Virus record (IMG/VR): IMGVR_UViG_3300021431_000008
Strand: one strand, 5' to 3'
Length of the DNA: 64,000 nt
From: a virus
Lineage: Duplodnaviria > Heunggongvirae > Uroviricota > Caudoviricetes
The number at the start of each line of letters is the position of its first letter. Within the stretch, counting starts at the first letter, position 1. Below are positions 5,499-54,153 of this stretch, piece by piece. Both the position numbers and the translations under genes were made by a program. Under the pieces are notes generated by a model, which had not been told where the DNA came from, ran no database searches, and saw nothing but the letters and a program-made list of their open reading frames with translations.

Positions 5499-5778
5499 GA
5501 TAGAACACGGCGCGATCCTTCTCGGATTCGATAGCCGAAGTCTTCGCTCGAAGTAAAGCGTTCTCTTCTTTTAGCTTTTCCATCTCTTCACGTTGTCTAA
5601 CTGATCCGGCTTTTAGAAAATGAACGTATTCGGCAGCAGTTGCGGTCCCGTTGTCGATGCGTTCTTCGACGGCACGAAAACTTTTCGCGATTAATCGGTT
5701 TTCCCACTCTTCGGGAGTCATTGGAGGAGCCGAATCGAGAAACTCATTTTTAGTTTTACTGGACTTTCTGGCAGCCAA
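5425..5778 (-). CDS. hypothetical protein (apparent TTG start)
   Basis: 117 aa; in-frame stop immediately upstream; AAAGGAG 12 nt before the TTG. Confidence 0.4.
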   Translation of the reverse strand: MAARKSSKTKNEFLDSAPPMTPEEWENRLIAKSFRAVEERIDNGTATAAEYVHFLKAGSVRQREEMEKLKEENALLRAKTSAIESEKDRAVFYREVIDALTSYRTETTDEPFDPYVY

Positions 5779-6295
5779 CTATCTGTTCATCTCCTTTCTG
5801 CCATACTTTGCGTAGACTTCTAATGCCTTTAAGGTGGGTATGATGGGGTTTTTATGTGGTTTATAGGAGGTAAACAACATGAAAGGAGAATCCTGATCCA
5901 AGACAGACAGAAAGGAACAAGCAGCCATGAGCAAAACTGCTAACGGAAACATCATACCCACTTTAAAAGCATTAGAATATTAGAAAATCTCTGTAGAGAA
6001 ATTAAGACTAAATATCAAAAATTGCCCCCGGAGCATTTTTGAGGACCGCCGCGATTGTGGTCCCCCTAGAATATAAAATGACCCCCTCCCGGGTGCTTTA
6101 GGCCGTTTTATATTGAATTTATATTACTTTATATCGAAAATAACGTTAGATATACGAAAAAACATGCACTAAACGATGCGAAAGCGGTTAGACGTTGTAA
6201 AAAAACCGATACTAGACAGCAAACATGTAGACTCATGCCCATAAATCCACATAAAAGCTATCTAGTATCGGCTAATACACACGGAAAGCGCGAGA

Positions 6296-6562
6296 TTACT
6301 GCTCAGTTACCTTCACATAGCAGACTTCTTCGCCCGTAACCGGACTAATGTATCGCAAATCCATCTTACAAATCTCATCGCAAGCATCTTCAATTGCTCT
6401 ATCCATCTCAGCCTGGCTCATTTCAGGAGAAGTGACAGCGATCCGAGCGAGATAGGATGCCGAATAGTATCCGCATTCTTTCTCATCATAAGCTGCCCAA
6501 CGATCATACTGTGTGAAGGGATTAAACTTATTGTCCGTCGTCGTAATCATAGTTCTGGCCAA
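6296..6562 (-). CDS. hypothetical protein
   Basis: 88-aa ORF immediately upstream of the RNAP gene. Confidence 0.45.
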   Translation of the reverse strand: MARTMITTTDNKFNPFTQYDRWAAYDEKECGYYSASYLARIAVTSPEMSQAEMDRAIEDACDEICKMDLRYISPVTGEEVCYVKVTEQ

Positions 6563-6565
6563 CTT

Positions 6566-9500
6566 TTAATCGCCTCCCTCATTAATTTCATTAAAATTCT
6601 TGAATTCTTTCTTTAGTATTTCATAAGAAATTCCAAGCTCTTTAGCCACAGTTGATGGAGCCATGCCAGAGTTCAGCATAATTCTCGCTCTCGACTTAGT
6701 CGAAGCCGGAATTGTGGCCTTTTGTCTCGGCAGTGCGCGCTGCTTAAGTTTTTCTTTGTCCGAATACCGAATGACCTGCTTGAATTTCTCACTGGAAATG
6801 GCACCGGCCTGAATAGCATCCCATTCGCGATCACTGAGCACGATCTGAAACCGTTTTTCATGAGTTCCGCCTCGCACAGCGTCTCTCGCATCAGCTAGGG
6901 CCTTCGAAGCGAGCTTCTTTCGCTTATCGAGATTGTCTTTCTCTTTCAACGTCGGATCTGCTGCAATCTTGGCATCCATCACACTGCTGGCAAGCATCTG
7001 TGCCTGACGTTCTTTCGGAGCTTCAAGTGCTGCAAGATCTAATTTCTTCGTTAAAGTTCCGTCCTTACCGACAACATCCGCATAAGTTTTCTTCGCTGTA
7101 GAATTCTCATCCATCGTTCCAGCTGCTCGTGCCTCTTTGCGAGCTTCATTCGCCAATGCTTTCAAACGATTGGCGTGATCTGCATAGATTTCTTCCATGT
7201 AATAACCGGAAGAAAGCTCATGAGCATCCTTAACGGCTGCCATCTTTTCAGTTTCCTGAGTCGCTTTCTTAATTTTTCCGGTATTTCGATATACAGGTTT
7301 ACCGGATTCATACAAAGCCAACTCCTCGGCTGTCATCTTAGCAGGATCTGTAATCTTCTTCCGCTCTGGGTATGTCCGATTTGTATTACGATAGATTACT
7401 TCACCATTCTTATAGCGTTCATACTCATCGGGAGTCAGCTTCGACGAATTCTTCTTTCCACCACTTTCCAGATACTCTTTGTATTCCTCGTCGCTCATCG
7501 GCTTTGTGCCGTATACTTCTTTCCGTGCCGGAATATCGGCGCGACCTTTGGCCTTGGAAATAAGTGTTGCGGCGCCACCTTTTTCTTTTCCCTGATAACG
7601 AAGTCGTAGTTCGGCAATACCATTGTCGATCTCGGACTGTTGCCAATCCAGATTATGCTTTTCGGCGTCGATAACGACCATGGAATGTTTAACGGCACGT
7701 GTAATCTCGTCCTCATTGCAGCCTATAATCTGCATATCGGTAATAAGGTTAGAAACTTTTCCCATTTCAGCGCCCTTATTGAAGCCGTCACCGCGTTTCG
7801 TTCCATCGCCTTTGCCGGTACGCACCGGATCATCAGGCGATCTAGAATACATTTCGGAAGGATCAAAATCCTTAAGGCCATCGAGAGGCGGACGAGTCTG
7901 TAGTTTCTGTCCAACGGTCGGAATAACAAGAACAGTATCGCCGTCATAGTCGGCACCTGATAACTGTTTTGCAACCGTTGAATTAATGCCAATTGCATGT
8001 GCAGGCGAAGTTCCAAGTGTTTCTTTTCCTTCCGGATTATCATTATTTACAATAAGCCGTGGAATCTCGAAGCGTCCGGCATGTGGATGACGAACCAGAA
8101 TTACTTCTTCACCATTCTCATAGGCAGGTGCATAAACCTCATTGTCTTTCAGACTCGGAACCGGTAAAATTGCGAACGATGCTTGTCTGGGTAAAGCCGC
8201 TGCTTTCAAATGCACAGCCGCGGCATCACAGTTATCAGCAAATTCTTCAAGAAACTCTTTCTTTAATGTAGGATTCGTCAAAGAGCGGTACTCTTCAAAC
8301 TCGTCCTTCATTTCCCCGTAACGAATATCCAGCTGCTTTTTAGCCACAACCGGAAGCTGTTTGGAAAGGAACTGCGACGAGAGGTTCTTCTGCCAACGAT
8401 CCCAGTCTTCGTCATCGTTCACGATATTAATCGGTGAAGTGTGACTCTTTCCATTGGCGTCTGTGTACTCCCATTGTCTGAAGGAAGCTCCAAATGGATT
8501 CTGACTATCGATCTCTCCGTACTGATCTTTCTTCATCTTTTTCAGAACGGAGTTATCGCCGTCGCCGATCATCGGTGTACCTTCATGCTTATTGGTATTG
8601 AAAACGATGTCGACTCCTTCCGGCATTTTCTTTGGATCTCCGTAAATCGCCATACCTTTCAGATAATGAGTTCCATCAACACCAATTCGAACCTGTGCAT
8701 AATTGCGATTTCCTAAAGAAAGATCCTCCGTTCCGGGACGAATCTCAATTACACCGTCTTTTTCCTGACCACCGCCAGGTTTGCCAGTATTGTAATTAAT
8801 CGCAACACGACTGGAATCGATACTCGGAATCGGTTTACGAATCTTTGCTTCTTCCCCATAATTTTCAAAGTAGAGGCCATCAGGAGTTGTAATTTGACTT
8901 AAATGCTCTTTTAGATCCTTCGTCGTTGTATTTCCATCGCAAAGTACTTTTAATGAAGTAAACTGCTTAGGATTCGTTACCTGATGAAGATCATAATTCA
9001 AGACATTATAGCCTTCGTCCTTTAAATAAAGGAGCGCGGCATGTAACTGCTGGTCGCTGATGTTCAACTGCCTTCCAACGCCTTCGCCAACATCCAGATA
9101 AGGCTTTGTTTTAAGCATTTCTGCCAGATTACTGGCAATAATTTCAGTCTTATTCTCGCGACGCTTCTTGGTCGGATCCAGATAGTTGCGAACGGTTCCT
9201 TCCGAAACGCCAAGTCTTTTTGCAATTTCCGTATTCGAATGGCCGTCATCACGCCATTTAATCGCCTGTCTCTGGTTCTCGACGTCCCGCTTTTCACGAT
9301 AGCGTCTTCGGATCTCACGATAGTCAGTGGTGCTCATCCCAAAAGCGGCAGCAACCTCTTTTTCGCTCAGACCCTGTTTGTGAAGTTCATCGGCTCTTTG
9401 GAGCCAATTCCGGTGTCGCTGCGGATTCTTACCGGAACCCCACGGATAGCGTCCAGAGTGTCTCGGAGTTCCGTAATGCGCAATAAATTCTTTTCGGTAC

Positions 9501-9688
9501 TGGCCGGTGGTTTCGTCAAAAACGTTCCTTTCTTCATAAATAAGACCGGTTCCATCGAAATATCCAGCGCCGCTCGAATGGATCAGCACAGCTTCGCTAA
9601 GTTCGTCGTAAAGTTCAGGCGACGGAGACGCCAGATACTCATCAATGTATTCCTTAGGCCAATCCTTGAAAATATCCAGCTCATCCAT
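6566..9688 (-). CDS. single-polypeptide two-barrel RNA polymerase (YonO-like), with N- and C-terminal sigma-region-4-like HTH modules
   Basis: aa ~330-375 ...YGDPKKMPEGVDIVFNTNKHEGTPMIGDG resembles the RNAP beta DPBB (EDMPY..GTPVDIVLNPLGVPSRMN). aa ~525-590 ILVRHPHAGRFEIP...SPAHAIGINSTVAKQLSGADYDGDTVLVIP resembles beta' (RQPTLHRLGIQAF...NADFDGDQMAVHVP) with the catalytic DxDGD. HTHs: HSNTEIAKRLGVSEGTVRNYL near the N-terminus and APSTVAKELGISYEILKKEF at the C-terminus. GGGAGG RBS; start codon shares one nt with the stop of the upstream nuclease gene. Confidence 0.65.
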   Translation of the reverse strand: MDELDIFKDWPKEYIDEYLASPSPELYDELSEAVLIHSSGAGYFDGTGLIYEERNVFDETTGQYRKEFIAHYGTPRHSGRYPWGSGKNPQRHRNWLQRADELHKQGLSEKEVAAAFGMSTTDYREIRRRYREKRDVENQRQAIKWRDDGHSNTEIAKRLGVSEGTVRNYLDPTKKRRENKTEIIASNLAEMLKTKPYLDVGEGVGRQLNISDQQLHAALLYLKDEGYNVLNYDLHQVTNPKQFTSLKVLCDGNTTTKDLKEHLSQITTPDGLYFENYGEEAKIRKPIPSIDSSRVAINYNTGKPGGGQEKDGVIEIRPGTEDLSLGNRNYAQVRIGVDGTHYLKGMAIYGDPKKMPEGVDIVFNTNKHEGTPMIGDGDNSVLKKMKKDQYGEIDSQNPFGASFRQWEYTDANGKSHTSPINIVNDDEDWDRWQKNLSSQFLSKQLPVVAKKQLDIRYGEMKDEFEEYRSLTNPTLKKEFLEEFADNCDAAAVHLKAAALPRQASFAILPVPSLKDNEVYAPAYENGEEVILVRHPHAGRFEIPRLIVNNDNPEGKETLGTSPAHAIGINSTVAKQLSGADYDGDTVLVIPTVGQKLQTRPPLDGLKDFDPSEMYSRSPDDPVRTGKGDGTKRGDGFNKGAEMGKVSNLITDMQIIGCNEDEITRAVKHSMVVIDAEKHNLDWQQSEIDNGIAELRLRYQGKEKGGAATLISKAKGRADIPARKEVYGTKPMSDEEYKEYLESGGKKNSSKLTPDEYERYKNGEVIYRNTNRTYPERKKITDPAKMTAEELALYESGKPVYRNTGKIKKATQETEKMAAVKDAHELSSGYYMEEIYADHANRLKALANEARKEARAAGTMDENSTAKKTYADVVGKDGTLTKKLDLAALEAPKERQAQMLASSVMDAKIAADPTLKEKDNLDKRKKLASKALADARDAVRGGTHEKRFQIVLSDREWDAIQAGAISSEKFKQVIRYSDKEKLKQRALPRQKATIPASTKSRARIMLNSGMAPSTVAKELGISYEILKKEFKNFNEINEGGD

Positions 9689-10260
9689 TACCCTTCAACC
9701 TCCCGCATCGACTCCTGAGCCCAGGCGTCTTTTTCTTTGATCGTACAGATAATTTCCTCCATACGGTCTTTATCAGGCATATACTCCTGAATGTCGTCGT
9801 TTTGATAGATCCGAAGATTTACTTTTGTGTTCAGAGGATTCACGCCAAAGGCGCGTTCATACTCCAAAAGAAAAAGAGCAGCATAAATCTCAAGCTGCTC
9901 CATGTGAACCGGGCCTGAGCCCGTCTTTAAGTCATGAATGCGAAGGACACCATGACTGAAGTCGATCGCATCAGTATGCCCGAAACAGGTGTCTGAATAT
10001 TTCAGCGCTACTTCAGGTGTCATGCCGTAACCGATCGCATCGTTGACGTATGCGGTCAGCGTCTGTGTCGAACCTCTAAGCTTGAGACCTTCCTGAATCA
10101 GCTTTGCAGCCAAGTCGTGAAGTCTCGTTCCTCTTGCAGCAGCATTCTGAGAGAGAATATAAGCCCGAAGCTGATCCTGCGTATAGTTCAACCAATAGGG
10201 CTTACTTGGACTTAGAAGCGCGTGTTTTCCTTCCAGTTCGAAATGCCTGTTGAAGTTCAT
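9688..10260 (-). CDS. PD-(D/E)XK family nuclease (RecB/Cas4-like fold)
   Basis: HTDAIDF...LRIHDLKTG (D...D-x-K) and EQLEIYAALF motifs; start moved to MNFNRHF, preceded by GGAGG. Confidence 0.6.
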   Translation of the reverse strand: MNFNRHFELEGKHALLSPSKPYWLNYTQDQLRAYILSQNAAARGTRLHDLAAKLIQEGLKLRGSTQTLTAYVNDAIGYGMTPEVALKYSDTCFGHTDAIDFSHGVLRIHDLKTGSGPVHMEQLEIYAALFLLEYERAFGVNPLNTKVNLRIYQNDDIQEYMPDKDRMEEIICTIKEKDAWAQESMREVEG

Positions 10261-10525
10261 CCAAAACCTCCTGCTTATTTTCAGGATAGATAAATCGGGA
10301 GAAGGACATCTGATCGGCGCGCTGTACATAGTAGTCCTGATTCGGACGATGACTCGCATCAGCCGACTTCTTGCATTCTAGAAGCGCCCAATGCTTCCCG
10401 TACAGTACCGTGAGATCAGGCAAACCCTGTTTCGTTTCGTTCTTGTATATCAGAGCATCAGGAAACAAGCCTCGCAGTTCCTCAATCAGATTTCTTTGAA
10501 ATTCGCTCTCAAGCATCTCTTTCAC
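10202..10525 (-). CDS. VRR-NUC domain nuclease
   Basis: GLPDLTVLYGKHWALLECKK...HRPNQ matches the VRR-NUC signature (GxPDL...iE.K...Q). Confidence 0.65.
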   Translation of the reverse strand: MKEMLESEFQRNLIEELRGLFPDALIYKNETKQGLPDLTVLYGKHWALLECKKSADASHRPNQDYYVQRADQMSFSRFIYPENKQEVLDELQQAFRTGRKTRASKSK

Positions 10526-10585
10526 CTCGCGAAAACCCTGAGAAAGAGTAAAAAATGCAGTATCTACTCTCCTCTATTCTAGGCG

Positions 10586-10602
10586 GTGTAAATTTTACGA
10601 AT
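10586..10602 (-). promoter_or_regulatory. copy of repeated CGTAAAWTTNACA promoter-like box (upstream of the VRR-NUC gene)
   Basis: plus strand gtgtaaattttacgaa; member of the ~35-copy family. Confidence 0.5.
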
Positions 10603-34100: not shown

Positions 34101-34177
34101 TGGTGGACCGTCTGGGACTTGAACCCAGGACCTGAGGTTTATGAGACCACTGCTCTGACCGACTGAGCTAACGGTCC
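34101..34177 (-). tRNA. tRNA-Met (CAT)
   Basis: minus strand GGACCGTTAGCTCAGTCGGTCAGAGCAGTGGTCTCATAAACCTCAGGTCCTGGGTTCAAGTCCCAGACGGTCCACCA; acceptor, D-arm and T-arm pair; anticodon loop CTCATAA; encoded CCA. Confidence 0.8.
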
Positions 34178-34467: not shown

Positions 34468-34543
34468 TGGCTGAGACGGCAGGATTTGAACCTGCGAATA
34501 ACGGAGTCAAAGTCCGCTGTGTTACCCACTTCACCACGCCTCA
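34468..34543 (-). tRNA. tRNA-Gln (TTG)
   Basis: minus strand TGAGGCGTGGTGAAGTGGGTAACACAGCGGACTTTGACTCCGTTATTCGCAGGTTCAAATCCTGCCGTCTCAGCCA; anticodon loop CTTTGAC. Confidence 0.75.
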
Positions 34544-35122: not shown

Positions 35123-35207
35123 TGGTACCGCTGAAGGGACTTGAACCCTCATGACTCTCGTCGGCAGATTTTAAGTCTGCTGTGTCTACCTATTCCACCA
35201 CAGCGGC
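35123..35207 (-). tRNA. tRNA-Leu (TAA), type II with long variable arm
   Basis: minus strand GCCGCTGTGGTGGAATAGGTAGACACAGCAGACTTAAAATCTGCCGACGAGAGTCATGAGGGTTCAAGTCCCTTCAGCGGTACCA. Confidence 0.75.
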
Positions 35208-45067: not shown

Positions 45068-45084
45068 TATAAAGGCTGCAAATT

Positions 45085-45300
45085 TTACGAATACATTTTC
45101 GAATTATAGTACTCTCGAACGGCGTGTCTCTCGTCTTCGAACTGGTGCAGGCGTTCATCGATCCATGCGTCCATTTCCTCCAGAGACTGGTACTCGCCTT
45201 TCTCCAGATACTCATAGACCTGCTCCTCGAACTTCTGCCGCATCATCGTCAGAATAAGATTACGCTTGTTTTTAGTCCATTCGCGTTCTTCTTCGTTCAT
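45085..45300 (-). CDS. hypothetical small protein
   Basis: 71 aa; promoter-like box 45074..45092 lies just downstream of the stop and serves the next gene. Confidence 0.45.
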   Translation of the reverse strand: MNEEEREWTKNKRNLILTMMRQKFEEQVYEYLEKGEYQSLEEMDAWIDERLHQFEDERHAVREYYNSKMYS

Positions 45301-45432
45301 ACTTTCACATCCTTTCTATTATAAGATTTGTAGAATTTTCGATTCGAACTTTGTGTATTCCTCCTATTGCATTTCTGAAAGGATTATGTTAGCGTTTAAA
45401 GCGATCTTTTAGAATGTAGGAGGTATTCTAAG

Positions 45433-45669
45433 ATGGCTAAAAATGACGTTTGGATTCGCTCTGAAGATCGTGGAGATCAGGTCTATGTGGAATGGGGCAA
45501 TGAAAATGGTCTCATTGGAACGGAAATGGTCAGTCGCGAAGAATACTATGCGACCCCTGAGAGTAAATCTAGCTCTTACAATTCTTATGACGACGAGCCG
45601 GATTGTGTCGCTGGCTGTGGCGGAGATTGGCCGAACTGCAAATATACATGTCCGCTGTATGACGACTAA
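45433..45669 (+). CDS. small plus-strand protein with C-terminal Cys cluster
   Basis: GGAGG RBS 8 nt before the ATG; CVAGCGGDWPNCKYTCPLYDD; rare plus-strand gene, convergent with 45666..46013. Confidence 0.5.
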   Translation: MAKNDVWIRSEDRGDQVYVEWGNENGLIGTEMVSREEYYATPESKSSSYNSYDDEPDCVAGCGGDWPNCKYTCPLYDD

Positions 45670-46013
45670 CTTTCTTCCCACTCCTCTTTCCTAAGTGGCT
45701 TCATGCGAAGCGCCCACATAACCTGACGAACCGTGTAGGTAGGATACAGTCCGTTCTCGTCTGGCGCATTGGCATGATCAACAAAGTACATTTCGAATCC
45801 TTTATTTAAGTAAATATCACCGGCAAGCCAGGGCTCGATGGAACTCCACCACCGGGCCTTGGACTTTTTATTATACTTTTCCTGAATAATTGCCAGACCG
45901 ACAGATCCGTCCTTACTCTGAAAAAGCGTACATTGGTTATACTTTGGATGGTCACAAATATAAACTTTTCCCGCTCCGACCCAGTTTTCCGGCTTTTCGT
46001 AATAGTATTTCAT
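45666..46013 (-). CDS. hypothetical protein
   Basis: 115-aa ORF. Confidence 0.5.
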   Translation of the reverse strand: MKYYYEKPENWVGAGKVYICDHPKYNQCTLFQSKDGSVGLAIIQEKYNKKSKARWWSSIEPWLAGDIYLNKGFEMYFVDHANAPDENGLYPTYTVRQVMWALRMKPLRKEEWEES

Positions 46014-46076
46014 AGATCACTTACATTTTGAATGAAAAAAAAGAGAAGGACTCTGTAAGAATCCCTCTCCGATTGG

Positions 46077-46418
46077 TCAAATATCCTTATCGTCTGTGAT
46101 CATGAAGATCACTTTGTCGGACGACGCGAAGTTCCCTGCATCAAGCAGTCCCTGGATGAAGGTCGGCGCCGATTTCATGCTTGCCTCCCCGTTCAGGTAG
46201 GTCTTCCCGAACTGGCGATAGTGCTGGTAGCACTTGCCCTCCGGAATGTCGAACTTAAAAAGTTCGGTCGTATTCCGTTTGACATGCCACAGCCAACATC
46301 CGCCAGCTCCAAGAAGAACTGCCGACATGGCAGTAAAGCCGATCTCGTATGCATAGTCCTTCACGAACTGTTTGAAATTAAACTTCTGTTTCTTTTCCTT
46401 CATTGTTATTTCCTCCAT
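46077..46418 (-). CDS. hypothetical membrane protein
   Basis: 113 aa; TM IGFTAMSAVLLGAGGCWLW. Confidence 0.5.
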   Translation of the reverse strand: MEEITMKEKKQKFNFKQFVKDYAYEIGFTAMSAVLLGAGGCWLWHVKRNTTELFKFDIPEGKCYQHYRQFGKTYLNGEASMKSAPTFIQGLLDAGNFASSDKVIFMITDDKDI

Positions 46419-46515
46419 AATTAATTAGATAAGGTCTCAAACCTCTCATTTATAACGTTGCAGGTTTTACGAAAAAAGCTAAGACACTGTAATATCAGCG
46501 CTTAGCTTTAGCTGC

Positions 46516-46764
46516 TTACGTTTCAGCAGGATTCGTTGACTTTATGGTAATGTATTTGGATACTAATGTTGCACTTCGGCATGCAGCTTTATATGTAATC
46601 ACACCGACCATGAACTTGGCGAACGATGGCATGTTTGACTTCATGCACAAGACGCCAACTACGATCTCAGTGATCATTCGAGCCGTATGACCATAAACTT
46701 GACTTGCATCCCAAGTTGCTTTTTCCATTTCCATAAATTTAACCTCCAAATATAATGTAAGCAT
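46516..46764 (-). CDS. hypothetical protein
   Basis: 82 aa, flanked by the cassette motif. Confidence 0.4.
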   Translation of the reverse strand: MLTLYLEVKFMEMEKATWDASQVYGHTARMITEIVVGVLCMKSNMPSFAKFMVGVITYKAACRSATLVSKYITIKSTNPAET

Positions 46765-46819
46765 ATAGCTTCATTTATGAAGCTGTAATTTTTACGAAAA
46801 AAAGAGAGCCGCTGTTAAG

Positions 46820-47182
46820 CTAGCTCTCCTCTCCTAAGTAATATAAATAACCTGGATCGATGTCTATTACGTAAGAAGCGCGAGTTTCTTTCATATATTC
46901 TTCGAAGCGTATACATAAATCAAACACTAGTCCTTTATCATTACTGGCAAAAAACACAAGATCATGACTTATAGGTGTTTCTTCGTATCCTAGTTTATGC
47001 TCATTGTCCAAATGCTCATCAATGATGCTAAAAACATGCCATACGTCAAGCAAACCAATGCGGTCAAGCTCGGTGTTTAATGCGTTAACAATTCGAACTA
47101 ATGTTTCAAATTTTGCTATGATATATGCGTCAAAAAATTGAAAATAACATACGACTTCATTTTCGTAATCCATTAGTTTCAC
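46820..47182 (-). CDS. hypothetical protein
   Basis: 120 aa, flanked by the cassette motif. Confidence 0.5.
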   Translation of the reverse strand: MKLMDYENEVVCYFQFFDAYIIAKFETLVRIVNALNTELDRIGLLDVWHVFSIIDEHLDNEHKLGYEETPISHDLVFFASNDKGLVFDLCIRFEEYMKETRASYVIDIDPGYLYYLGEES

Positions 47183-47234
47183 CTCCTATCTTTGGAGCTG
47201 TAGAAAATACGAAAAAAGAAGAGCCGCTGTTAAG

Positions 47235-47498
47235 CTAACTCTTCTTGTAGAAGTTTTCTAATAGATTATTTATAGTTTTTTCTGTGCTGTATAGCGCACC
47301 TATTTCAGGTTTCACCACCATGGTATAACCAACGGTATTGTACAGTTCTACATTTTTAGGGTCTTGCCCGTATTCGGTAAGGCCCTGAAGCAATTCGACA
47401 TACGCGTCACCTACCGCAACGTGAAACTTTGAAATGATTCCTGCTAATTCTTTACTACGTTTCATGTTATCTACAAATAATTCATTCATAGTTTTCAC
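47235..47498 (-). CDS. hypothetical protein
   Basis: 87-aa ORF. Confidence 0.45.
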   Translation of the reverse strand: MKTMNELFVDNMKRSKELAGIISKFHVAVGDAYVELLQGLTEYGQDPKNVELYNTVGYTMVVKPEIGALYSTEKTINNLLENFYKKS

Positions 47499-47553
47499 CT
47501 CCTCTATTTATGAAATTGTAGAATCTACGAAAAAAGTAAAGCCACTGCGGGCC

Positions 47554-47847
47554 TTACTTTTTAGTGTTTACCATTTCTGTCGCTATAAGATCGATCTTGA
47601 ACAGCTTATGAATATCAAGACTATCAATCATGATAGGTAATGTTCCTCCACTGTCTTTGAATAGAATCACTTCGAAATATCCTCCGGAATATGGATCGCA
47701 GTCATAAACCGCGTAAGCTTTTCCTTTGAATATTCTGGCGATTCTTTCCGCTTTATGAGCAGTTGCCAACATATACTTACCAGTGAAATAACCTTTATAC
47801 AAAAATAGCTCTTGATCGCTTTTTGCTCTCCAAATTTGCATAAACAT
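47554..47847 (-). CDS. hypothetical protein
   Basis: 97-aa ORF. Confidence 0.45.
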   Translation of the reverse strand: MFMQIWRAKSDQELFLYKGYFTGKYMLATAHKAERIARIFKGKAYAVYDCDPYSGGYFEVILFKDSGGTLPIMIDSLDIHKLFKIDLIATEMVNTKK

Positions 47848-47900
47848 CGCTCCTTTCTATCTAATAGGTTGCAGGTTTTACGAAAAAAAATAAAAAGTTG

Positions 47901-47973
47901 TGAGAGTTACCCCGCTTCGAACAGGGGTCTCCGAAATATAAATTCCGGCGCTCTACCATTGAGCTATTATGGA
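47901..47973 (-). other. tRNA-like element / degenerate tRNA (intact D- and T-arms, non-pairing acceptor stem, 8-nt anticodon loop)
   Basis: minus strand TCCATAATAGCTCAATGGTAGAGCGCCGGAATTTATATTTCGGAGACCCCTGTTCGAAGCGGGGTAACTCTCA. D-stem GCTC/GAGC, T-arm CCCTG-TTCGAAG-CGGGG, but the 5' TCCATAA cannot pair with the 3' TAACTCT. Confidence 0.35.
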
Positions 47974-48070
47974 TCGTTGGGGCCCTTTCATCCCCGGGCT
48001 CGCATAACCGTCCCATTCGCCTTCCTCTCACTATAGGAGGTGTAGAATTTGCGAAAAAGGAAAGCCGGTG

Positions 48071-48271
48071 TCAGCTTTCCAATACCGGCTCTTCCTCGAT
48101 TATATAATATTCTTCAGGTATATATTCAGGATAATCATCTAATTCGTCGGCTAAGATTCCATTATGTTCCTTTACATAGTTTAAAGCCCCTTGCTCAGAC
48201 TTAAATACTCCAGCAAGTTCCTCGTGACCATTTGCAAGCAGGATCTCGCGCCATAAAATGTATACCTTCAT
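48071..48271 (-). CDS. hypothetical small acidic protein
   Basis: 66-aa ORF. Confidence 0.45.
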   Translation of the reverse strand: MKVYILWREILLANGHEELAGVFKSEQGALNYVKEHNGILADELDDYPEYIPEEYYIIEEEPVLES

Positions 48272-48296
48272 ATTAATATCACCTCCTATTATAAAG

Positions 48297-48318
48297 CCTG
48301 TAAAATTTGCGAAAAAAG
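48297..48318 (-). promoter_or_regulatory. archetypal copy of the promoter-like box
   Basis: minus strand hairpin GAGAGAGC..GCTCTCT, TTTTTT, CGCAAATTTTACAGGCTT, TATAAT, AGGAGGTGA, 7 nt, ATG. Confidence 0.55.
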
Positions 48319-48328
48319 AGAGCCGTTG

Positions 48329-48613
48329 TTAGCTCTCTCTGTCCATATCTTCGAATAATGCACGATACTCTTTCTTTATCGCATTGATTGATTTGTTTAT
48401 TGCATTAACATCTCTAAGTGCCTCGATTCGTAACTGAGTAGGATCGACGTTATTCAGAACAACTTTACCATTTTCAACATGGCAAACTTCTGGATTTTCC
48501 GCCTTCCAAATAGTTTCAAAAATGAGTTGATCACGCTTTTGATCTAATGCTTTCATAACACTATCTCTTACTTCCGCTTTGTAAAGTTCGTATTGCATCG
48601 ACATTATAGTCAC
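48329..48613 (-). CDS. hypothetical protein
   Basis: 94-aa ORF. Confidence 0.45.
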   Translation of the reverse strand: MTIMSMQYELYKAEVRDSVMKALDQKRDQLIFETIWKAENPEVCHVENGKVVLNNVDPTQLRIEALRDVNAINKSINAIKKEYRALFEDMDRES

Positions 48614-48657
48614 CTCCTATCATAAAGCCTGTAGAATTTGCGAAAAAAGAGCCGCTG

Positions 48658-48933
48658 TTAAGCTAGCTCTTTTTCTAGTATTCCGTAACTTCCAATAAAA
48701 GTTAAAAGTCGATTAGAATCCATACTACTTTCTTGCGTAATGCGTTCGATCCATAGATCTTCAAATATTGGTCCTTCACAGCGCTTTGCATTTGGCCACG
48801 TTTTTTCTATGTATTCTTCAGCATCCAATTTGCTTTTAAATACACTAAAAATCTGCGACATTACTAAATTGCCGTCATCAATTCCAGTATTTTTTTCTCC
48901 ATAGAAGTCTCCATATACCACATATACTTTCAT
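48658..48933 (-). CDS. hypothetical protein
   Basis: 91-aa ORF. Confidence 0.45.
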   Translation of the reverse strand: MKVYVVYGDFYGEKNTGIDDGNLVMSQIFSVFKSKLDAEEYIEKTWPNAKRCEGPIFEDLWIERITQESSMDSNRLLTFIGSYGILEKELA

Positions 48934-48963
48934 ACGGTTTTCATCTCCTTTCCTATTTTATGA

Positions 48964-48986
48964 ATTGTAGAATTTGCGAAAAAAGA
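48964..48986 (-). promoter_or_regulatory. copy of the promoter-like box + hairpin
   Basis: ttgtagaatttgcgaaaaaagagagccgttgtagctctctc. Confidence 0.5.
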
Positions 48987-49003
48987 GAGCCGTTGTAGCT
49001 CTC

Positions 49004-49384
49004 TCACATGTGAATCCAAGGTTGCGCATCCAAAACATCCACCTGGGTTTCATAAATAGAATATACCGGAAGAACCTTTAGCCACGTGTCGCCATATTCA
49101 TCAGCTTTAAACGCATACCACGAAAGAGTATCCCGTTCGAGCCAATAGCTGAACATTTCGCTATCGAAAATATCAACCTTCTCATCTCGTTTGGGCATCA
49201 ATCCGTGAATATGGTTCATCAGCTCAATACTGAAAGCGATCTTGCCTGATTCTGTTTCCATCTTTTCCTGATTTATTTTATCTCTATAAGACGCCATGTC
49301 GCATCCCTCCTCATTTATGAAGCTGCAAAATATACGAAAAAGTAAAGCCGTTGTCGACTCTACTTTTACTGACTTACATATCAA
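49004..49384 (-). CDS. hypothetical protein
   Basis: 126-aa ORF. Confidence 0.5.
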   Translation of the reverse strand: MICKSVKVESTTALLFRIFCSFINEEGCDMASYRDKINQEKMETESGKIAFSIELMNHIHGLMPKRDEKVDIFDSEMFSYWLERDTLSWYAFKADEYGDTWLKVLPVYSIYETQVDVLDAQPWIHM

Positions 49385-49691
49385 AGTGATAAAATTTCGC
49401 GATATATTCCATCGTATTCAGCGGCTCTTCCATATCATCTGTCATCGCGTCGTACTGTTCAAACCAGTAGCCGGCTCGTGATATCCAGGCGCTCCACCGG
49501 AGTCTAAAGAACTTGAGCAACGTCGGCTTATTCACCGATTTATTGATCAGGTTAAAGTAGAACTTTTCGATGAGGCGCGACAAATACCAGAGTTTATACA
49601 AGGCCCAGTACTTTGGCGTGATTTTTACAAGCTTAAACCAAGCCCGCAGATACTCTTTTGCATCTTCTCTATCCACTAGTTTTACCTCCAA
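49374..49691 (-). CDS. hypothetical protein
   Basis: 105-aa ORF; promoter box 49723..49741 upstream, back-to-back with the integrase start. Confidence 0.45.
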   Translation of the reverse strand: MEVKLVDREDAKEYLRAWFKLVKITPKYWALYKLWYLSRLIEKFYFNLINKSVNKPTLLKFFRLRWSAWISRAGYWFEQYDAMTDDMEEPLNTMEYIAKFYHFDM

Positions 49692-49776
49692 ATATAATGT
49701 AAGCTTATAGCTCCATTTATGAAGTTGTAATTCTTACGAAAGCATGTTATACTTCCATTTTGAAGGAGGAATGCCG

Positions 49777-50823
49777 ATGAAATTACCCAGGGCAAAGAAA
49801 CTACCATCTGGAAATTGGCGGATTCAAATCGCAGTTGACGGCAAACGGTACAGTATTACCGATCCCGATCCGAAAGTCGTCAAGCAAAAAGCAAAGGAAC
49901 TTTATGCAGGCCTTCAGTTCGAAAAGCGCATACCTCTCACCGTCGGCAAAGCTTTCGATCAATATATCGAGGCAAAAGACAGCGTTCTCTCTCCTGCTAC
50001 CATTCGAGGTTATAAAAAAATCCGAAAAAACTATCTTCAGTTCCTCATGAAAGAAAATATCACGGATCTCACGCAGGAGCAGGTGCAGAAAGCCATCAAT
50101 GCCGACTTTAAACGTGGCGCAAGCAGCAAATCAGTAAGGAATGCTCACGGGCTTCTCAGTGCAGTCTTAAAAGAATATCGTCCAAACTTCGTCCTGAGAA
50201 CAACACTTCCTCAGAAAGAGCCTCATGAAATCTCTATCCTTACCGAAGATGAGCTCAAGAAACTCTATGCGGCAGCCGAAGGAACCAAGTATTACCTTCC
50301 TATTGTTTTGGCATCCTGGCTCGGTCTTCGTATGAGTGAAATTCGTGGACTTAAGTTTTCGGATATCATCGACGAACGGATTCACATTCAGCGAGCCATT
50401 GTCGAAGGAGAAGATGGACCTGCTGAAAAACTTACGAAGTCCTTAGCTGGTGACCGCTGGATTAAATGCCCGAATGAGATTAAGACCCTTATTGATCAGC
50501 AGCCACGCGATTCCGAATACGTAGTTCCTCTCACTCAGGCTGCGATCTACAAGGGCTTTATCCGTCTCTGTGAAAAGGCAAATATAACACAATGCCGCTT
50601 TCACGATCTCAGGCATTTCGCAGCATCTGAAGCCCACTCTCTTGGTGTTCCTGATAAATATGCTATGAAGCGTATGGGACACAAAACCGATAATATGCTG
50701 AAGACGGTTTATCAGCACACGATGATCGAAAAAGAGGATTCGTTCTCAGATTTAATCGACTCTCACATGGAGTCGCTCTTTTTAGGCGCTAAAACTGCAC
50801 ACGAAACTGCACACGCCGAGTAA
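49777..50823 (+). CDS. int: tyrosine site-specific recombinase / phage integrase
   Basis: C-terminal catalytic box CRFHDLRHFAASEAHSLGV...MGHKTDNMLKTVYQHT (R..HxxR..Y); start set at MKLPRAKK, 7 nt after GGAGG. Confidence 0.85.
   Translation: MKLPRAKKLPSGNWRIQIAVDGKRYSITDPDPKVVKQKAKELYAGLQFEKRIPLTVGKAFDQYIEAKDSVLSPATIRGYKKIRKNYLQFLMKENITDLTQEQVQKAINADFKRGASSKSVRNAHGLLSAVLKEYRPNFVLRTTLPQKEPHEISILTEDELKKLYAAAEGTKYYLPIVLASWLGLRMSEIRGLKFSDIIDERIHIQRAIVEGEDGPAEKLTKSLAGDRWIKCPNEIKTLIDQQPRDSEYVVPLTQAAIYKGFIRLCEKANITQCRFHDLRHFAASEAHSLGVPDKYAMKRMGHKTDNMLKTVYQHTMIEKEDSFSDLIDSHMESLFLGAKTAHETAHAE
50790..50816 (+). repeat. tandem arm-type repeat AAACTGCACACG x2 (candidate integrase arm sites, P arm)
   Basis: aaactgcacacgaaactgcacacg overlapping the last codons of int. 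Confidence 0.45.
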
Positions 50824-50863
50824 ACTTTCCTGATTTCATGCGTATTTGAAGGCCTTTTCTATA

Positions 50864-50890
50864 GGGGTTCAACTCCCCCCATCTCCACCA
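50864..50890 (+). mobile_element. attP-like core: 3' fragment of a tRNA gene (T-arm + acceptor + CCA) immediately downstream of int
   Basis: ggggttcaactccccccatctccacca = T-stem GGGG, loop TTCAACT, CCCC, acceptor 3' strand CATCTCC, A, CCA; no matching 5' half nearby. Confidence 0.6.
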
Positions 50891-50896
50891 ATTTCC

Positions 50897-50929
50897 AAAG
50901 CCCTGAGCCACAACGGTTCGGGGCTTTTT
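50897..50929 (+). terminator. rho-independent terminator of int
   Basis: aaagccc...gggcttttt (AAGCCC/GGGCTT stem + T5). Confidence 0.5.
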
Positions 50930-50987
50930 CTTTGATTTCAAGCGGTTTGCAGTCACTTAAGTATGCGAAATATCTTTCATGTCGGAA

Positions 50988-51036
50988 ACCGAAATTGCAC
51001 ACAAAACAGCTAAAACTGCACACGAAATTGCACATG
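50988..51036 (+). repeat. arm-type repeats (GAAATTGCACAC, AAAACTGCACACG, AAATTGCACATG; P' arm candidate)
   Basis: three more copies of A(C/T)TGCACA(C/T)G within 50 bp on the far side of the tRNA-fragment core. Confidence 0.45.
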
Positions 51037-51082
51037 AAAAAAATGAAAGTAGCTGTAAGAACTACTTCCATTTTGATTAATT

Positions 51083-51277
51083 TCAGACCTTCTTGAAGGG
51101 ACCCACGAACTGGAGTCCAATGTAGCAAGCCAGGAACGCCAGAATAACTTTGTGGCTCGCAATCCAGTCAAGGATGTTCAGGTTTCCAGACACGATGTCT
51201 GAACCGAAATTCACCAGACCGTACGCGACACACAGCGCCAGTGGCACCATCAGCATTGCATAAATAACTCTTTTCAT
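51083..51277 (-). CDS. small two-TM membrane protein
   Basis: 64 aa; VIYAMLMVPLALCVAYGLV and ILAFLACYIGLQFV. Confidence 0.45.
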   Translation of the reverse strand: MKRVIYAMLMVPLALCVAYGLVNFGSDIVSGNLNILDWIASHKVILAFLACYIGLQFVGPFKKV

Positions 51278-51542
51278 ATTAAATCCTCCTTTTATAATTA
51301 GGTCTTTCTATTATAAAAGGTGCGATTTTTACGAAAAAAGAGGGGGCTGTGTTGTTATTTCAGCCCCAAGGATCGTCACTTATTTACCATCATGAGCACG
51401 AGGCCCAGCACTACAACACCTATTGGTCCAAATTGTGTGAATGCCAGGATAGCTCCTGCACCTATGAGTAGTAATTTCATGGATCCTTCGTTATTCATCA
51501 ACATTCCTCCTCTTTTTATTATTGCATTACTGCATTATAGAG

Positions 51543-51565
51543 TCTGCATATTTTACGAAAAAAGG
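51543..51565 (-). promoter_or_regulatory. copy of the promoter-like box + GGAAAGCC..CTTTCC hairpin
   Basis: tctgcatattttacgaaaaaaggaaagccgttgtagactttcc; on minus TATAAT lies 18 nt after CGTAAAAT. Confidence 0.5.
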
Positions 51566-51594
51566 AAAGCCGTTGTAGACTTTCCTTTTGAGAC

Positions 51595-51960
51595 TTACTT
51601 TCTTCGCCTCTCTTTCCGCAAAAGCCCCATATCGTTAAGAGCTTCTCCTTTGGACTCGCCGTCGATCATGCGACTACCGAGTTCCAAGATTTCATTGTTT
51701 GTCAAAGGATGCTTCAACATGAACTCTTCGCCAGTCACGTCATCCTCGGATAAACAACGATCATTCTGATTGGCTCCAGCCAGCATGCTAAGGCCCTTAA
51801 AGGCCAAGCTGCCGACCATGGATACCATCGGAAGTACCATTGCCGGATTCTTGGATACGAACTCAGCGAACGAATTCAGTCCCGAAGTTACCTTCGCTTT
51901 CGTCCTCTGAAACCAGCTTCCTTCAGCTTTCGTTGTTTCGACCGTTTTGTTTTCGTCCAT
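51595..51960 (-). CDS. hypothetical protein
   Basis: 121 aa; hydrophobic core AMVLPMVSMVGSLAF. Confidence 0.45.
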   Translation of the reverse strand: MDENKTVETTKAEGSWFQRTKAKVTSGLNSFAEFVSKNPAMVLPMVSMVGSLAFKGLSMLAGANQNDRCLSEDDVTGEEFMLKHPLTNNEILELGSRMIDGESKGEALNDMGLLRKERRRK

Positions 51961-52063
51961 AAGTTTTTCCTCCTTTTAAATTTAAACTTCTGCATTATAG
52001 AACCTGTAAAAAATGCGATAAAAATAGGAACCGCTGCAAGCGCAACAGCCCTATTTTAGTAAA

Positions 52064-52315
52064 TTAGCCTTTCATTTTTCTGATACTACGATAGATACTT
52101 TCCGTTCCGATCGCCAGTGACATAAACACGATGATTCCAGCAACAACCGTATGCCAGGGAACGCTATAAAATGCATGCGTATACTCGAGATAAGTTACGC
52201 CTTCGAACTTCATATCGAAGATCGTAGCTATCCCAAGCTCCGTAAGACACATTACTGCGTCCATGATCATCAGGATCGCCAGAATTCCAAGTCTCATCCA
52301 TGCCGATTTCTTCAT
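52064..52315 (-). CDS. small membrane protein
   Basis: 83 aa, three hydrophobic helices. Confidence 0.45.
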   Translation of the reverse strand: MKKSAWMRLGILAILMIMDAVMCLTELGIATIFDMKFEGVTYLEYTHAFYSVPWHTVVAGIIVFMSLAIGTESIYRSIRKMKG

Positions 52316-52646
52316 AACTTTAAGCTCCTTATAATATAGTATTCAGAAAGACTTACTTTCCTATCTTATAAGCTGCCAAAATTACGAAAAAAGGAAAGCC
52401 GTTGTAGGCTTTCCTTCCATGGCATAGATTACTTAAGATTGGATCGTTTTGTATAATACTTATCAACAGCCCACTTAACTACCGTTCTAATAATCGTAGC
52501 AAGTCCTACAAACTCTAAAACAGTTTCCGTGCTGTCCTTCATATTTTTCATAACTTTCCTCCTATTATGTAATATTCTGCATTATAGGGCATGCAAAAAA
52601 TACGAAAAAAAGGAAAGCCGTTGTAGACTTTCCTTTAGAACTTATC

Positions 52647-52844
52647 TTACTTAACAGGAAACATCTTAGTTAATTTGTGCATCGATATCCCGAGAATAGC
52701 GGAAACTTCTGATGGCGAATAACCCTCGCTAAGCAATTCGCATGCTTTTCTTTTGCGCTTCATTGCATAATACGCTTCGATAATACCTCCAGTCACAGCT
52801 CCGCATACAACAAAAGCCGTCGAATACACAAAAAATTTCTTCAT
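52647..52844 (-). CDS. small membrane protein
   Basis: 65 aa; FFVYSTAFVVCGAVTGGII. Confidence 0.4.
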   Translation of the reverse strand: MKKFFVYSTAFVVCGAVTGGIIEAYYAMKRKRKACELLSEGYSPSEVSAILGISMHKLTKMFPVK

Positions 52845-52891
52845 ATTATATATCCTCCAAATATAATGTAAGCTTACGCTCCACTATAAAA

Positions 52892-52913
52892 GCTGTAACA
52901 TTTACGAAAAAAG
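52892..52913 (-). promoter_or_regulatory. copy of the promoter-like box + hairpin
   Basis: agctgtaacatttacgaaaaaaggaaagccgttgtagactttcc. Confidence 0.5.
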
Positions 52914-52974
52914 GAAAGCCGTTGTAGACTTTCCTTATAGATTTAGATACCTACGTAATTCTATTCTTTAGTTT

Positions 52975-53331: not shown

Positions 53332-53344
53332 CTCCTATTTTACA

Positions 53345-53366
53345 AGTTGCCAAAATTACGAAAAAA
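53345..53366 (-). promoter_or_regulatory. copy of the promoter-like box + hairpin
   Basis: agttgccaaaattacgaaaaaaggaaagccgttgtagactttcc. Confidence 0.5.
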
Positions 53367-53407
53367 GGAAAGCCGTTGTAGACTTTCCTTCCATTTTGAT
53401 TCCTAAA

Positions 53408-53806: not shown

Positions 53807-53842
53807 AAATCTACCTCCATAAAATAATTTTGGATCGTTCCA

Positions 53843-54091: not shown

Positions 54092-54153
54092 CTCCTCTCA
54101 CAAAAAAAGAGAAGACCATGTAATGAGTCTCCTCTCATGTTGAAGGAAAGAGA

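Follow-up and report, generated by a model that had tools for sequence, protein, structure and literature searches.

A distant relative of the protein described here is YonO of the Bacillus prophage SPbeta, whose late genes it has been proven to transcribe as a DNA-dependent RNA polymerase. YonO consists of a single two-barrel chain of 839 amino acids, and its gene lies upstream of the late operon in the same orientation. Other phage enzymes of this kind, all with solved structures, are gp66 from crAss-like phi14:2 (2166 residues in the solved chain), gp96 of P23-45, which is a virion enzyme fused to the tape measure protein, and the non-virion single-chain two-barrel polymerases P23-45 gp64 and P74-26 gp62. 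QDE-1 of Neurospora and plant RDR2 belong to silencing pathways and use RNA or single-stranded DNA as substrates. Across the superfamily, barrel B carries two basic residues and one acidic residue (R738, K743 and D709 in QDE-1), and an R-x-P motif lies about 45 residues before the aspartate loop (R962/P964 in QDE-1, R446/P448 in Rpb1; PMC2919709). The member encoded by phage 1706 was listed with the YonO-like two-barrel polymerases in 2010 (PMC2919709). The family-wide combination of HTH modules and polymerase was already reported by Koert et al. (bioRxiv 10.1101/842583), together with an HHpred probability of 95.7% to cellular RdRPs of the QDE-1/RDR2 type.

The window, i.e. the whole 64,000-nucleotide stretch of Caudoviricetes DNA that was analysed, carries a gene for a real single-chain RNA-polymerase-like enzyme, kin of the eukaryotic RNA-silencing polymerases. 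The ORF starts with ATG, about 10 nt downstream of a GGGAGG ribosome-binding site, and the stop codon of the upstream Cas4-like gene overlaps this start (TAATG). Its translation contains every motif quoted in an earlier note on this DNA, namely KMPEGVDIVFNTN (aa 354-366), GTPMIGDG (aa 370-377), RHPHAGRFEIP (aa 533-543) and ADYDGDTVLVIP (aa 579-590). No near-identical DNA was found among sequenced phages. The protein matches PHROG 4291, named "RNA-dependent RNA polymerase" (E=4.8e-302), its aa 65-1030 pairing with positions 8-906 of the 909 in the profile. The gene belongs to a large phage family that is already catalogued and whose biochemical role is putative. The family is present in 250 sequenced phages, in 249 of which the record covers at least 80% of the query, and comprises at least 751 protein clusters at 50% identity. 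Contrary to what had been supposed, it is not rare, while its description as poorly characterised holds, since our literature search found biochemical or genetic evidence for no family member. Nor is it new that polymerase motifs occur together with HTH domains at both ends: this holds throughout the family and was described in 2010 and 2021.

Examples of PHROG 4291 include ORF75 of Lactococcus phage 1706, gp81 of P162, gp92 of Gordonia phage Tanis, gp94 of Arthrobacter phage Mudcat, gp55 of Streptomyces phage Scap1, gp106 of Rhodococcus phage ReqiPepy6, and homologues in Faecalibacterium phages. These proteins fall into the same length class as the window protein, share its architecture, starting with the HYG..RSGRYPWGSG peptide and ending with the C-terminal HTH, and have identical invariant catalytic residues. 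The genes also have common neighbours (a VRR-Nuc-type endonuclease, a Cas4 exonuclease and a small PHROG 4303 ORF) and no further large gene separates them from the genome end or the late genes. The window protein differs in an extra N-terminal extension of about 70 residues, found otherwise only in close metagenomic relatives, and its genome is larger than those of the cultured homologues (relatives are on 83-97 kb contigs).

The overall fold of the AlphaFold model agrees with that of solved two-barrel polymerases. The best structural matches were QDE-1 and RDR2, followed by other two-barrel RNA polymerases, while gp66 was reached by Foldseek with an E-value of only 0.79. Together with the alignments, the model bears out the idea of a two-barrel polymerase in a single polypeptide, to which HTH modules are fused and whose DxDGD metal loop is conserved. 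QDE-1 and RDR2 share a DbDGD-type catalytic loop with the window protein, at 10-14% identity, but the latter has HTH modules and is encoded in the replication block of a dsDNA phage. By sequence, PDB searches with the whole protein, the close-family profile and each barrel segment alone returned HTH or chance matches only. The sole Pfam family that touches the polymerase core is PF05183, in a match centred on DYDGD; the window core scores 14.0 bits (E=0.02), below the 23.8-bit gathering threshold, the best family member (1706 ORF75) reaches 22.1 bits (E=7.1e-5), and eight of ten members match at E<=10. Sequence similarity to phi14:2 gp66, P23-45 gp96 and gp64, and P74-26 gp62 was undetectable, and the accessory domains of gp66 and gp96 are unlike those of the window protein.

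Conservation of the active site was followed in a family-wide alignment of 10 sequences, in which the window protein is 31-45% identical to the six aligned homologues from cultured phages. Invariant residues are R334, K344, G345, V359-D360, F363-N364-T365-N366-K367, R533, P535, D580, D582, G583 and D584. The D580-Y-D582-G583-D584 loop did not change in 51 close and 10 distant sequences, and neither R533-x-P535 nor the R334/K344 pair varies among relatives from Lactococcus through Streptomyces phages. The catalytic aspartates had been numbered D579/D581/D583, which is off by one. R334 and K344 stand on either side of the turn of a beta-hairpin in the predicted first barrel (model strands 295-300, 313-316, 330-337, 341-349 and 361-368), where D311 and D322 are invariant candidates for the acidic residue. 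KMPEGVDIVFNTN, from the proposed beta-like signature, follows this hairpin within the same predicted barrel, directly after the conserved basic pair, but the resemblance is not significant by sequence alone: the barrel sequence matched no RNAP beta chain at E<=10. GTPMIGDG is not conserved in the 10-sequence alignment. Two invariant helices that follow the second barrel in the model may be a bridge-helix-like element.

The protein had been called YonO-type, which does not apply in the strict sense. YonO belongs over its full length to phrog_8308 (E=0), whereas the window protein is a full-length member of phrog_4291, has its nearest solved folds in QDE-1 and RDR2, and matches phrog_8308 only at aa 511-650 (about 140 residues, E=6.9e-7). 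The link is visible only through this profile and a weak BLASTP match (80 residues, E=0.012); comparing the family with the single YonO sequence by hhalign gave nothing (probability 0.2%). The two enzymes nevertheless have the same barrel order and similar R-x-P...DxDGD spacing: R533-H-P535 aligns with R492-S-P494 of YonO, and DYDGD with DNDGD in the YonO motif pair RSP...DNDGD. The position of the window gene is likewise analogous to that of yonO. A PHROG scan of YonO gave no match to an HTH family. The window protein is only a distant cousin of YonO.

The HTH modules are of unequal clarity. At least three such segments had been proposed; the second is solid (HTH_23, 49.5 bits, 3.1e-13; Sigma70_r4_2, 35.5 bits against a cutoff of 25.7, 7.8e-9, aa 137-170; PDB match to the RhlR HTH), the first (about aa 100-132) falls just below threshold, with model helices at 91-104, 109-115 and 120-147, and the C-terminal one is weak in the window protein (HTH_7, E=0.035). 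The latter is supported by the model and by homologues, in which it exceeds Pfam thresholds (Sigma70_r4, 27.6 bits in phage 1706; HTH_23, 25.2 bits in Tanis). The term sigma-like proved too specific. HTH_23, HTH_7, GerE and transposase HTHs score equal to or above Sigma70_r4_2 on the second segment, the generic HTH_23 being best and LuxR and resolvase HTHs also matching, and Sigma70_r2 is absent both from the listed matches of the window protein and from the 25 families most often matched by the 10 members. Pfam scans gave no match for aa 180-250 or for the HYGTPRHSGRYPWGSGKNPQR peptide. In the latter, Y72, G73, R76, S78-P82 and G84-G86 are invariant and pLDDT is below 50; homologues from cultured phages begin just before it, and the first residue covered by tblastn and phmmer matches is about aa 67.

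Table 1. Features of the polymerase locus (positions in the window)
Feature	Residues	Position	Strand	Remarks
Box copy TTCGTAAAATTTACACCGCCTAGAAT		10576..10602	minus	Upstream of the endonuclease-Cas4-polymerase operon; same place in relative L001
Small endonuclease		10202..10525	minus	First gene of the operon; phrog_93 (homologues annotated VRR-Nuc)
Cas4 / PD-(D/E)XK exonuclease		9688..10359	minus	Stop overlaps the polymerase start codon
Polymerase gene	1040 aa	6566..9688	minus	Full-length PHROG 4291 member
N-terminal extension	1-70	9479..9688	minus	Alignment; seen only in one gut-metagenome subclade
HYGTPRHSGRYPWGSGKNPQR peptide	71-91	9416..9478	minus	Family-invariant; predicted disordered
First HTH	92-132	9293..9415	minus	Sub-threshold: HTH_23 22.2 bits (cutoff 24.6), E=1.2e-4
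Second HTH	133-171	9176..9292	minus	LuxR / sigma-region-4 / resolvase type
Winged-helix-like unit	180-250	8939..9151	minus	Model only: DSSP order H-E-H-H-E-E
First barrel (beta-like DPBB-B)	~295-425	8414..8806	minus	Model strands, invariant residues; putative barrel assignment
Second barrel (beta-prime-like DPBB-A)	~500-592	7913..8191	minus	With R533-H-P535 and D580-Y-D582-G-D584
DYDGD catalytic loop	580-584	7937..7951	minus	Sequence, alignments
Two invariant helices	638-678	7655..7777	minus	MG..SNLI.DM, AV.HSM..ID.EKH; model, alignment
C-terminal HTH	995-1030	6599..6706	minus	Model helices 995-1006, 1011-1018, 1022-1028
88-aa ORF, PHROG 4303		6296..6562	minus	Directly after the polymerase gene in 7/7 relatives examined
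Terminator of the polymerase operon		6199..6271	minus	15-bp-stem hairpin and T7 run; kept in L001

The gene lies at the end of the replication block, in which the earlier note had placed it, and in every relative examined it is found in or at the end of this block. Its context of an upstream Cas4-type exonuclease, a downstream PHROG 4303 ORF and the position of last large gene is conserved across relatives. The 88-aa PHROG 4303 protein is a candidate accessory factor or cofactor of the polymerase.

About 35 repeated promoter-like boxes had been noticed in the window. They are real, but our count is 28, where 2.2 would be expected, and every match lies on the coding strand. The boxes precede early and middle genes, each behind a terminator, and lack sigma-70 geometry. 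They do contain a good TATAAT, and reading by the host RNA polymerase helped by another factor would fit too. The copy TTCGTAAAATTTACACCGCCTAGAAT apparently drives the polymerase's own operon; because one box precedes this operon, the enzyme cannot be the sole reader of the boxes unless it is delivered in the virion. The box of the window was not found in distant relatives, while the recognition helix of the second HTH (SEG/S-T/S-V-R) is nearly constant across phages of 34-57% GC, which together disfavour this HTH as the reader of a clade-specific box. Two other candidate recognition sites were rejected. Read as GYAAA-N-TTTRC, an 11-bp dyad suited to a dimeric or tandem HTH, the box core occurs in perfect form only four times in the window, and distant relatives have no perfect copy. 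A short strand-polar ATATT motif (KATATTY, 144:19, z=14) is absent from P162, 1706, Scap1 and Mudcat, all of which carry the polymerase.

Based on the fold, active-site conservation, domain architecture, family membership and synteny, we consider the chances about even that the protein is an active two-barrel polymerase of the QDE-1/YonO branch which makes phage RNA from DNA without a host sigma factor; its catalytic activity, DNA template, role in transcription and promoter class are what we infer from these observations. The two double-psi beta-barrels would form one active site, to which the second contributes R533-x-P535 and the Mg-binding D580/D582/D584 loop, and the first the basic pair R334/K344. 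Host-sigma-independent, DNA-dependent RNA synthesis for the phage is the most likely job of such an enzyme. The two N-terminal HTHs, the winged-helix-like unit and the C-terminal HTH may place it on specific phage DNA sites, possibly with the 88-aa downstream product as a cofactor. One candidate set of targets is formed by the 28 non-sigma-70 boxes before early and middle genes, which would need virion delivery of the enzyme; the other is a single, YonO-like late promoter in the spacer of 0.5 kb (5778-6296) that follows immediately downstream. Virion delivery is possible, as the original record of phage 1706 labels the homologue ORF75 a "structural protein". The fuller version, a virion-packaged, sigma-free two-barrel RNAP whose fused HTHs find the 28 strand-specific boxes as promoters, we regard as doubtful. 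Against transcription speaks the fact that the templates of the nearest solved relatives are RNA or single-stranded DNA, and that these enzymes read no promoters.

Alternatively, the protein might be a replicative primase or replication initiator. It would then synthesise short primers of RNA on origin DNA or on single strands, bind the origin through its HTH and winged-helix modules, and have as partners the helicase-polymerase, ssDNA-binding protein, helicase and nucleases encoded nearby. This seems unlikely to us, though it has more in its favour than the readings that follow. The gene is always part of the replication block or placed at its end, and here it is translationally coupled to the Cas4-like exonuclease; yet in 1706 and P162 lysis genes separate it from the nucleases. 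No recognisable primase catalytic domain was found among the ORFs scanned. The "primase" matches on the 1409-aa replication protein concern its P4/D5 helicase part, and a search for a primase domain in this protein gave only an SF3 helicase fold: the fold of residues 1-470 is that of the D5/NrS-1/SaPI5 SF3 helicase, with matches to helicase-only constructs. Host DnaG, however, could prime. KATATTY lies on the strand that, provided forks and transcription run in the same direction, would serve as lagging-strand template, but the motif, missing from the four polymerase carriers named above, is not tied to the enzyme. Primase activity is not known for any two-barrel enzyme. QDE-1, on the other hand, has been crystallised copying DNA templates (PDB 7Y7T, 7Y7S).

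It is improbable that the database name is literally correct and the protein is a true RNA-dependent RNA polymerase, serving regulation or counter-defence by making antisense or double-stranded RNA from transcripts of the phage or host. Eukaryotic cellular RdRPs indeed provide both the nearest folds and the one Pfam family that touches the core, and the DYDGD/DFDGD loop, with its aromatic second residue, is an RdRP-style motif. However, the name was assigned by homology transfer, several HTH modules of the dsDNA type favour a DNA-bound enzyme, the phage relative of the same branch, YonO, is DNA-dependent, and RNA-mediated control of such a kind is not known in bacteria (Ruprich-Robert and Thuriaux, PMC2919709). 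Still less credible, and in our opinion very improbable, is a mainly DNA-binding regulator or structural protein with a catalytically dead polymerase core. Most GenBank records name only an HTH protein ("HTH DNA-binding domain protein"), and that of phage 1706 a structural protein, but the active-site residues are invariant at 31-45% identity in phages of different bacterial phyla. Because they are retained over such deep divergence, a working enzyme rather than a relic is expected.

No new class is defined by the window, which contributes a further divergent member of the family and a genome with an unusually clear set of candidate target sites. If the virion-packaged transcriptase that finds the boxes through its HTHs is the right reading, no two-barrel polymerase before it would have been shown to recognise promoters by built-in HTHs, and the same would hold for a family found in hundreds of actinobacterial and Firmicutes phages. 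Many of the 250 sequenced phages have culturable hosts. Showing how a two-barrel core operates with fused HTHs in place of sigma would bear on the evolution of promoter recognition in the superfamily, and also on the origin of the eukaryotic RdRPs.

The ORF and every peptide quoted in the earlier note were found in the translation of the polymerase gene, whose start codon (ATG) overlaps the stop of the gene upstream. Since ADYDGDTVLVIP maps to aa 579-590, the aspartates of the DYDGD loop are D580, D582 and D584, each one residue higher than previously numbered. An AlphaFold2 model, built with 51 homologues as input (mean pLDDT 78, pTM 0.61), was compared with the PDB using Foldseek. The best match was the silencing polymerase QDE-1 of Neurospora (E=1.2e-7, probability 1.0, ~690 columns), followed by RDR2 of maize and Arabidopsis (probability 1.0); bacterial beta-prime chains (E ~0.1-1) and gp66 of phi14:2, a crAss-like phage (E=0.79), were also reached. 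By secondary-structure order, the model contains two beta-rich units, at about aa 295-425 and 500-592, and the DYDGD loop immediately precedes the final strand of the latter. The original reading, a two-barrel, single-chain polymerase fused to helix-turn-helix (HTH) modules, was right on both fold and fusion.

Ruprich-Robert and Thuriaux listed eight residues invariant across two-barrel RNA polymerases, in QDE-1 numbering D709, R738, K743, R962, P964, D1007, D1009 and D1011 (PMC2919709). When the polymerase was aligned with its homologues in phages of Lactococcus, Gordonia, Streptomyces, Arthrobacter and Rhodococcus, which are 31-45% identical to it, R533, P535, D580, D582, G583 and D584 proved invariant. 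The same is true of R334 and K344-G345, which the model places on either side of a hairpin turn of the first barrel. Judged from this model, R334 and K344 would lie at the position expected for the two-barrel basic pair, and D311 and D322, both invariant, are candidates for the acidic residue. Directly after K344 comes the stretch that had been compared with a bacterial beta signature; its VD..FNTNK portion is invariant, but GTPMIGDG is unconserved and the resemblance is not significant by sequence alone.

The designation "YonO-type" needs to be narrowed. YonO, encoded by yonO of SPbeta, defines phrog_8308 (E=0, full length), whereas the match of the polymerase to this profile is limited to aa 511-650 (E=6.9e-7). 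BLASTP aligned VRHPH...DYDGD of the polymerase to LRSPH...DNDGD of YonO over 80 residues (E=0.012), and hhalign gave no match between the polymerase family and the single YonO sequence. Of 10 family members, 8 matched the eukaryotic RdRP model PF05183, with the best score for ORF75 of Lactococcus phage 1706 (E=7.1e-5, 22.1 bits, below the 23.8 cutoff); PF05183 is also the sole Pfam match of the polymerase core (E=0.02), falling exactly at the DYDGD loop. Because the phrog_8308 match is partial, hhalign found nothing and PF05183 is reached, we place the family within the QDE-1/YonO branch as a sister of the YonO family, outside that family itself. Like the polymerase gene, yonO of SPbeta lies just upstream of late genes and is co-oriented with them, and YonO transcribes that late operon.

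Within the polymerase, Pfam annotates only HTH domains, around aa 133-171, and phrog_4291 ("RNA-dependent RNA polymerase" in PHROGs) covers the whole protein (E=4.8e-302, aa 65-1030 versus profile positions 8-906 of 909). Homologues were detected by tblastn in 250 sequenced phages, with at least 80% of the query covered in 249 of them. Their hosts include Arthrobacter (95), Gordonia (55), Streptomyces (54) and Lactococcus (13); phages of Curtobacterium, Microbacterium, Rhodococcus and Faecalibacterium and human-gut contigs are further sources. These phage records carry the labels "HTH DNA-binding domain protein" or "RNA-dependent RNA polymerase". A word-index search of metagenomes returned at least 8000 matches, and when 1.84 billion representatives were searched exhaustively, 751 clusters at 50% identity (E<=1e-30) emerged, nearly all of 880-1020 residues and aligned to polymerase residues ~67-1027. 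Given these counts and the uniform lengths and coverage, the family is common and its architecture fixed, and the rarity claimed earlier does not hold.

Nor is the HTH-polymerase architecture novel. A 2010 listing of five YonO-like two-barrel families included the phage 1706 protein and termed its role "an enigma" (PMC2919709). According to Koert et al., the family is a signature gene shared by an actinophage supercluster with Lactococcus and Faecalibacterium phages; they reported HTH domains at both termini, the DxDGD loop and an HHpred match to PF05183 of 95.7% (bioRxiv 10.1101/842583). Our literature search found no biochemical or genetic study of the family. The polymerase adds a new, divergent member to a family already known but biochemically uncharacterised.

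The HTH modules are present family-wide; among the segments proposed, aa 133-171 can be assigned firmly to a tri-helical HTH. The unit at aa ~100-132 scores slightly under threshold, and the C-terminal one is weak here but exceeds thresholds in homologues (phage 1706, Sigma70_r4, 27.6 bits; Gordonia phage Tanis, HTH_23, 25.2 bits). A winged-helix-like unit is predicted by the model at aa 180-250. As to the "sigma-like" character, aa 133-171 passes the Sigma70_r4_2 threshold, but it scores equally or better against HTH_23, resolvase, LuxR and transposase HTHs, and no sigma region 2 was detected among the matches listed for the polymerase or among the 25 Pfam families that 10 family members matched most often. 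The best-conserved stretch of the protein is HYGTPRHSGRYPWGSGKNPQR, predicted to be disordered and without a Pfam match, in which Y72, G73, R76, S78-P82 and G84-G86 do not vary across phages ranging from those of Lactococcus to those of Streptomyces. It resembles a peptide to which a putative partner would dock, such as a capsid/portal protein, a clamp or the host polymerase.

Features of the polymerase and of the surrounding window
Feature	Position	Strand	Remarks
Polymerase ORF	6566-9688	minus	1040 codons; Shine-Dalgarno sequence
HYGTPRHSGRYPWGSGKNPQR	aa 71-91 (9416-9478)		polymerase
KMPEGVDIVFNTN	aa 354-366		polymerase
GTPMIGDG	aa 370-377		polymerase
RHPHAGRFEIP	aa 533-543		polymerase
ADYDGDTVLVIP	aa 579-590		polymerase
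88-aa ORF	6296-6562	minus	phrog_4303
GC-rich block	6023-6095		CACCCGGGAGGGGGTC...GGGGGACCACAATCGCGGCGGTCC...CCGGGGGC
27-nt inverted repeat	5950-5976, 5819-5845		brackets start of late gene string
Replication protein, 1409 aa	12466-16695	minus	helicase-DNA polymerase fusion
tRNA genes, clear	34104-34177, 34471-34543, 35126-35207	minus	Rfam 58-70 bits
tRNA-like match, marginal	47909-47967		31 bits
Tyrosine integrase gene	49744-50823	plus	

The minus-strand genes run in the order helicase-DNA polymerase fusion, ssDNA-binding/annealing protein, helicase, small endonuclease, Cas4-type exonuclease, polymerase, 88-aa ORF, strong terminator, GC-rich cos-like block, HNH endonuclease, connector and lysozyme. 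In a 69%-identical metagenomic relative (84-kb contig), terminase and portal genes follow further downstream; in actinophages no large gene lies between the polymerase gene and the right end of the genome. The GC-rich block past the operon terminator, conserved in that relative and followed by the inverted repeat, is likely a cos or pac region. In 7 of 7 relatives (Lactococcus, Gordonia, Streptomyces, Arthrobacter and Rhodococcus phages and a gut contig), the phrog_4303 ORF comes next after the polymerase gene, a few bases away at most, and its product is a candidate polymerase cofactor. This protein, for which no solved relative was found, carries the conserved motif T.DN...P.T....W...D....GY......AR. 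Among the middle genes lie the tRNA genes and the tRNA-like match. The integrase gene stands on the opposite strand amid the box-rich early region, which points to a temperate lifestyle or to an inserted element.

The polymerase could be the phage primase, since no recognisable primase catalytic domain was found in the ORFs scanned. The 1409-aa protein joins a D5/P4-type SF3 helicase at its N-terminus to a DNA polymerase (weak family-B matches at aa 1075-1179), and its "primase" matches fall on the P4/D5 helicase part. The model of residues 1-470 (pLDDT 74) matches helicase-only constructs, namely SaPI5 primase-helicase, NrS-1 305-718 and vaccinia D5 323-785. As the protein lacks an AEP or Toprim primase domain, the 'DNA primase/polymerase' label of its homologues probably derives from the helicase part. 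However, priming by host DnaG would explain this just as simply.

The repeated promoter-like boxes proposed as the target of the polymerase are real: 28 copies of TTTCGTAAAWTYTRCAG were found with at most 3 mismatches, all on the coding strand (2.2 expected); a stricter pattern gave 24 copies there versus 1 on the opposite strand. They are confined to 10.6-58.5 kb (e.g. 45076-54421), usually directly behind a hairpin and T-run and 23-117 nt ahead of a ribosome-binding site. The search pattern itself imposed TCGYA and TRCA; outside these, conservation of the T-run on the flank and of the AA that follows TCGT is about equal to that of a TATAAT-like element 4-5 nt downstream. No sigma-70 -35 hexamer occurs at 16-18 nt, and a consensus scan found no sigma-70-like site at box 10600. 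In the box-rich 10 kb, sigma-70-like sites numbered 23 versus 24.6 expected, and terminators 19 versus 7.3. A shared ~30-nt leader, GGAGCTATAWGCTTACAWWATATTTGGAGG, follows boxes 35589, 46797, 49739 and 52907. One box lies upstream of the endonuclease-Cas4-polymerase operon and is conserved in this position in the metagenomic relative, and the late genes have no box upstream within the window. If the boxes are read by the polymerase, the enzyme has to be available ahead of the expression of its own gene, unless another enzyme uses the boxes as well.

A short strand-polar motif was also observed. The coding strand carries 144 copies of KATATTY and the opposite one 19 (61+-6 in synonymous-codon shuffles, z=14), in all reading frames and about once per 450 bp. 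In 19 kb of Tanis, ATATT outnumbers AATAT 65 to 0 (YATATTYK 37:0, z=21), and in Rhodococcus phage ReqiPepy6 8 to 0; the motif is absent from P162, 1706, Scap1 and Mudcat. It might mark priming sites, signal polarity or reflect avoidance of AATAT. Lactococcus phage P162 has a 65-nt intergenic element, unrelated to the box, upstream of two genes (33-97 and 8672-8736 of L002, 97% identity), the sole long repeat in the 23 kb examined.

A lead on delivery comes from the annotation of homologues. In the GenBank record of phage 1706 as deposited (EU081845), both orf71 and ORF75 (L009 3083-6172), the latter 38% identical to the polymerase over its whole length, are labelled "structural protein". The RefSeq copy keeps this label for orf62 and orf71 and renames ORF75 'RNA-dependent RNA polymerase'. 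All three genes are located outside the morphogenesis module, and the ReqiPepy6 record gives the same label to gp106 (L007 2510-5224). This pattern suggests that the polymerase homologue was detected in virions, and the polymerase itself may likewise be packaged in the virion.
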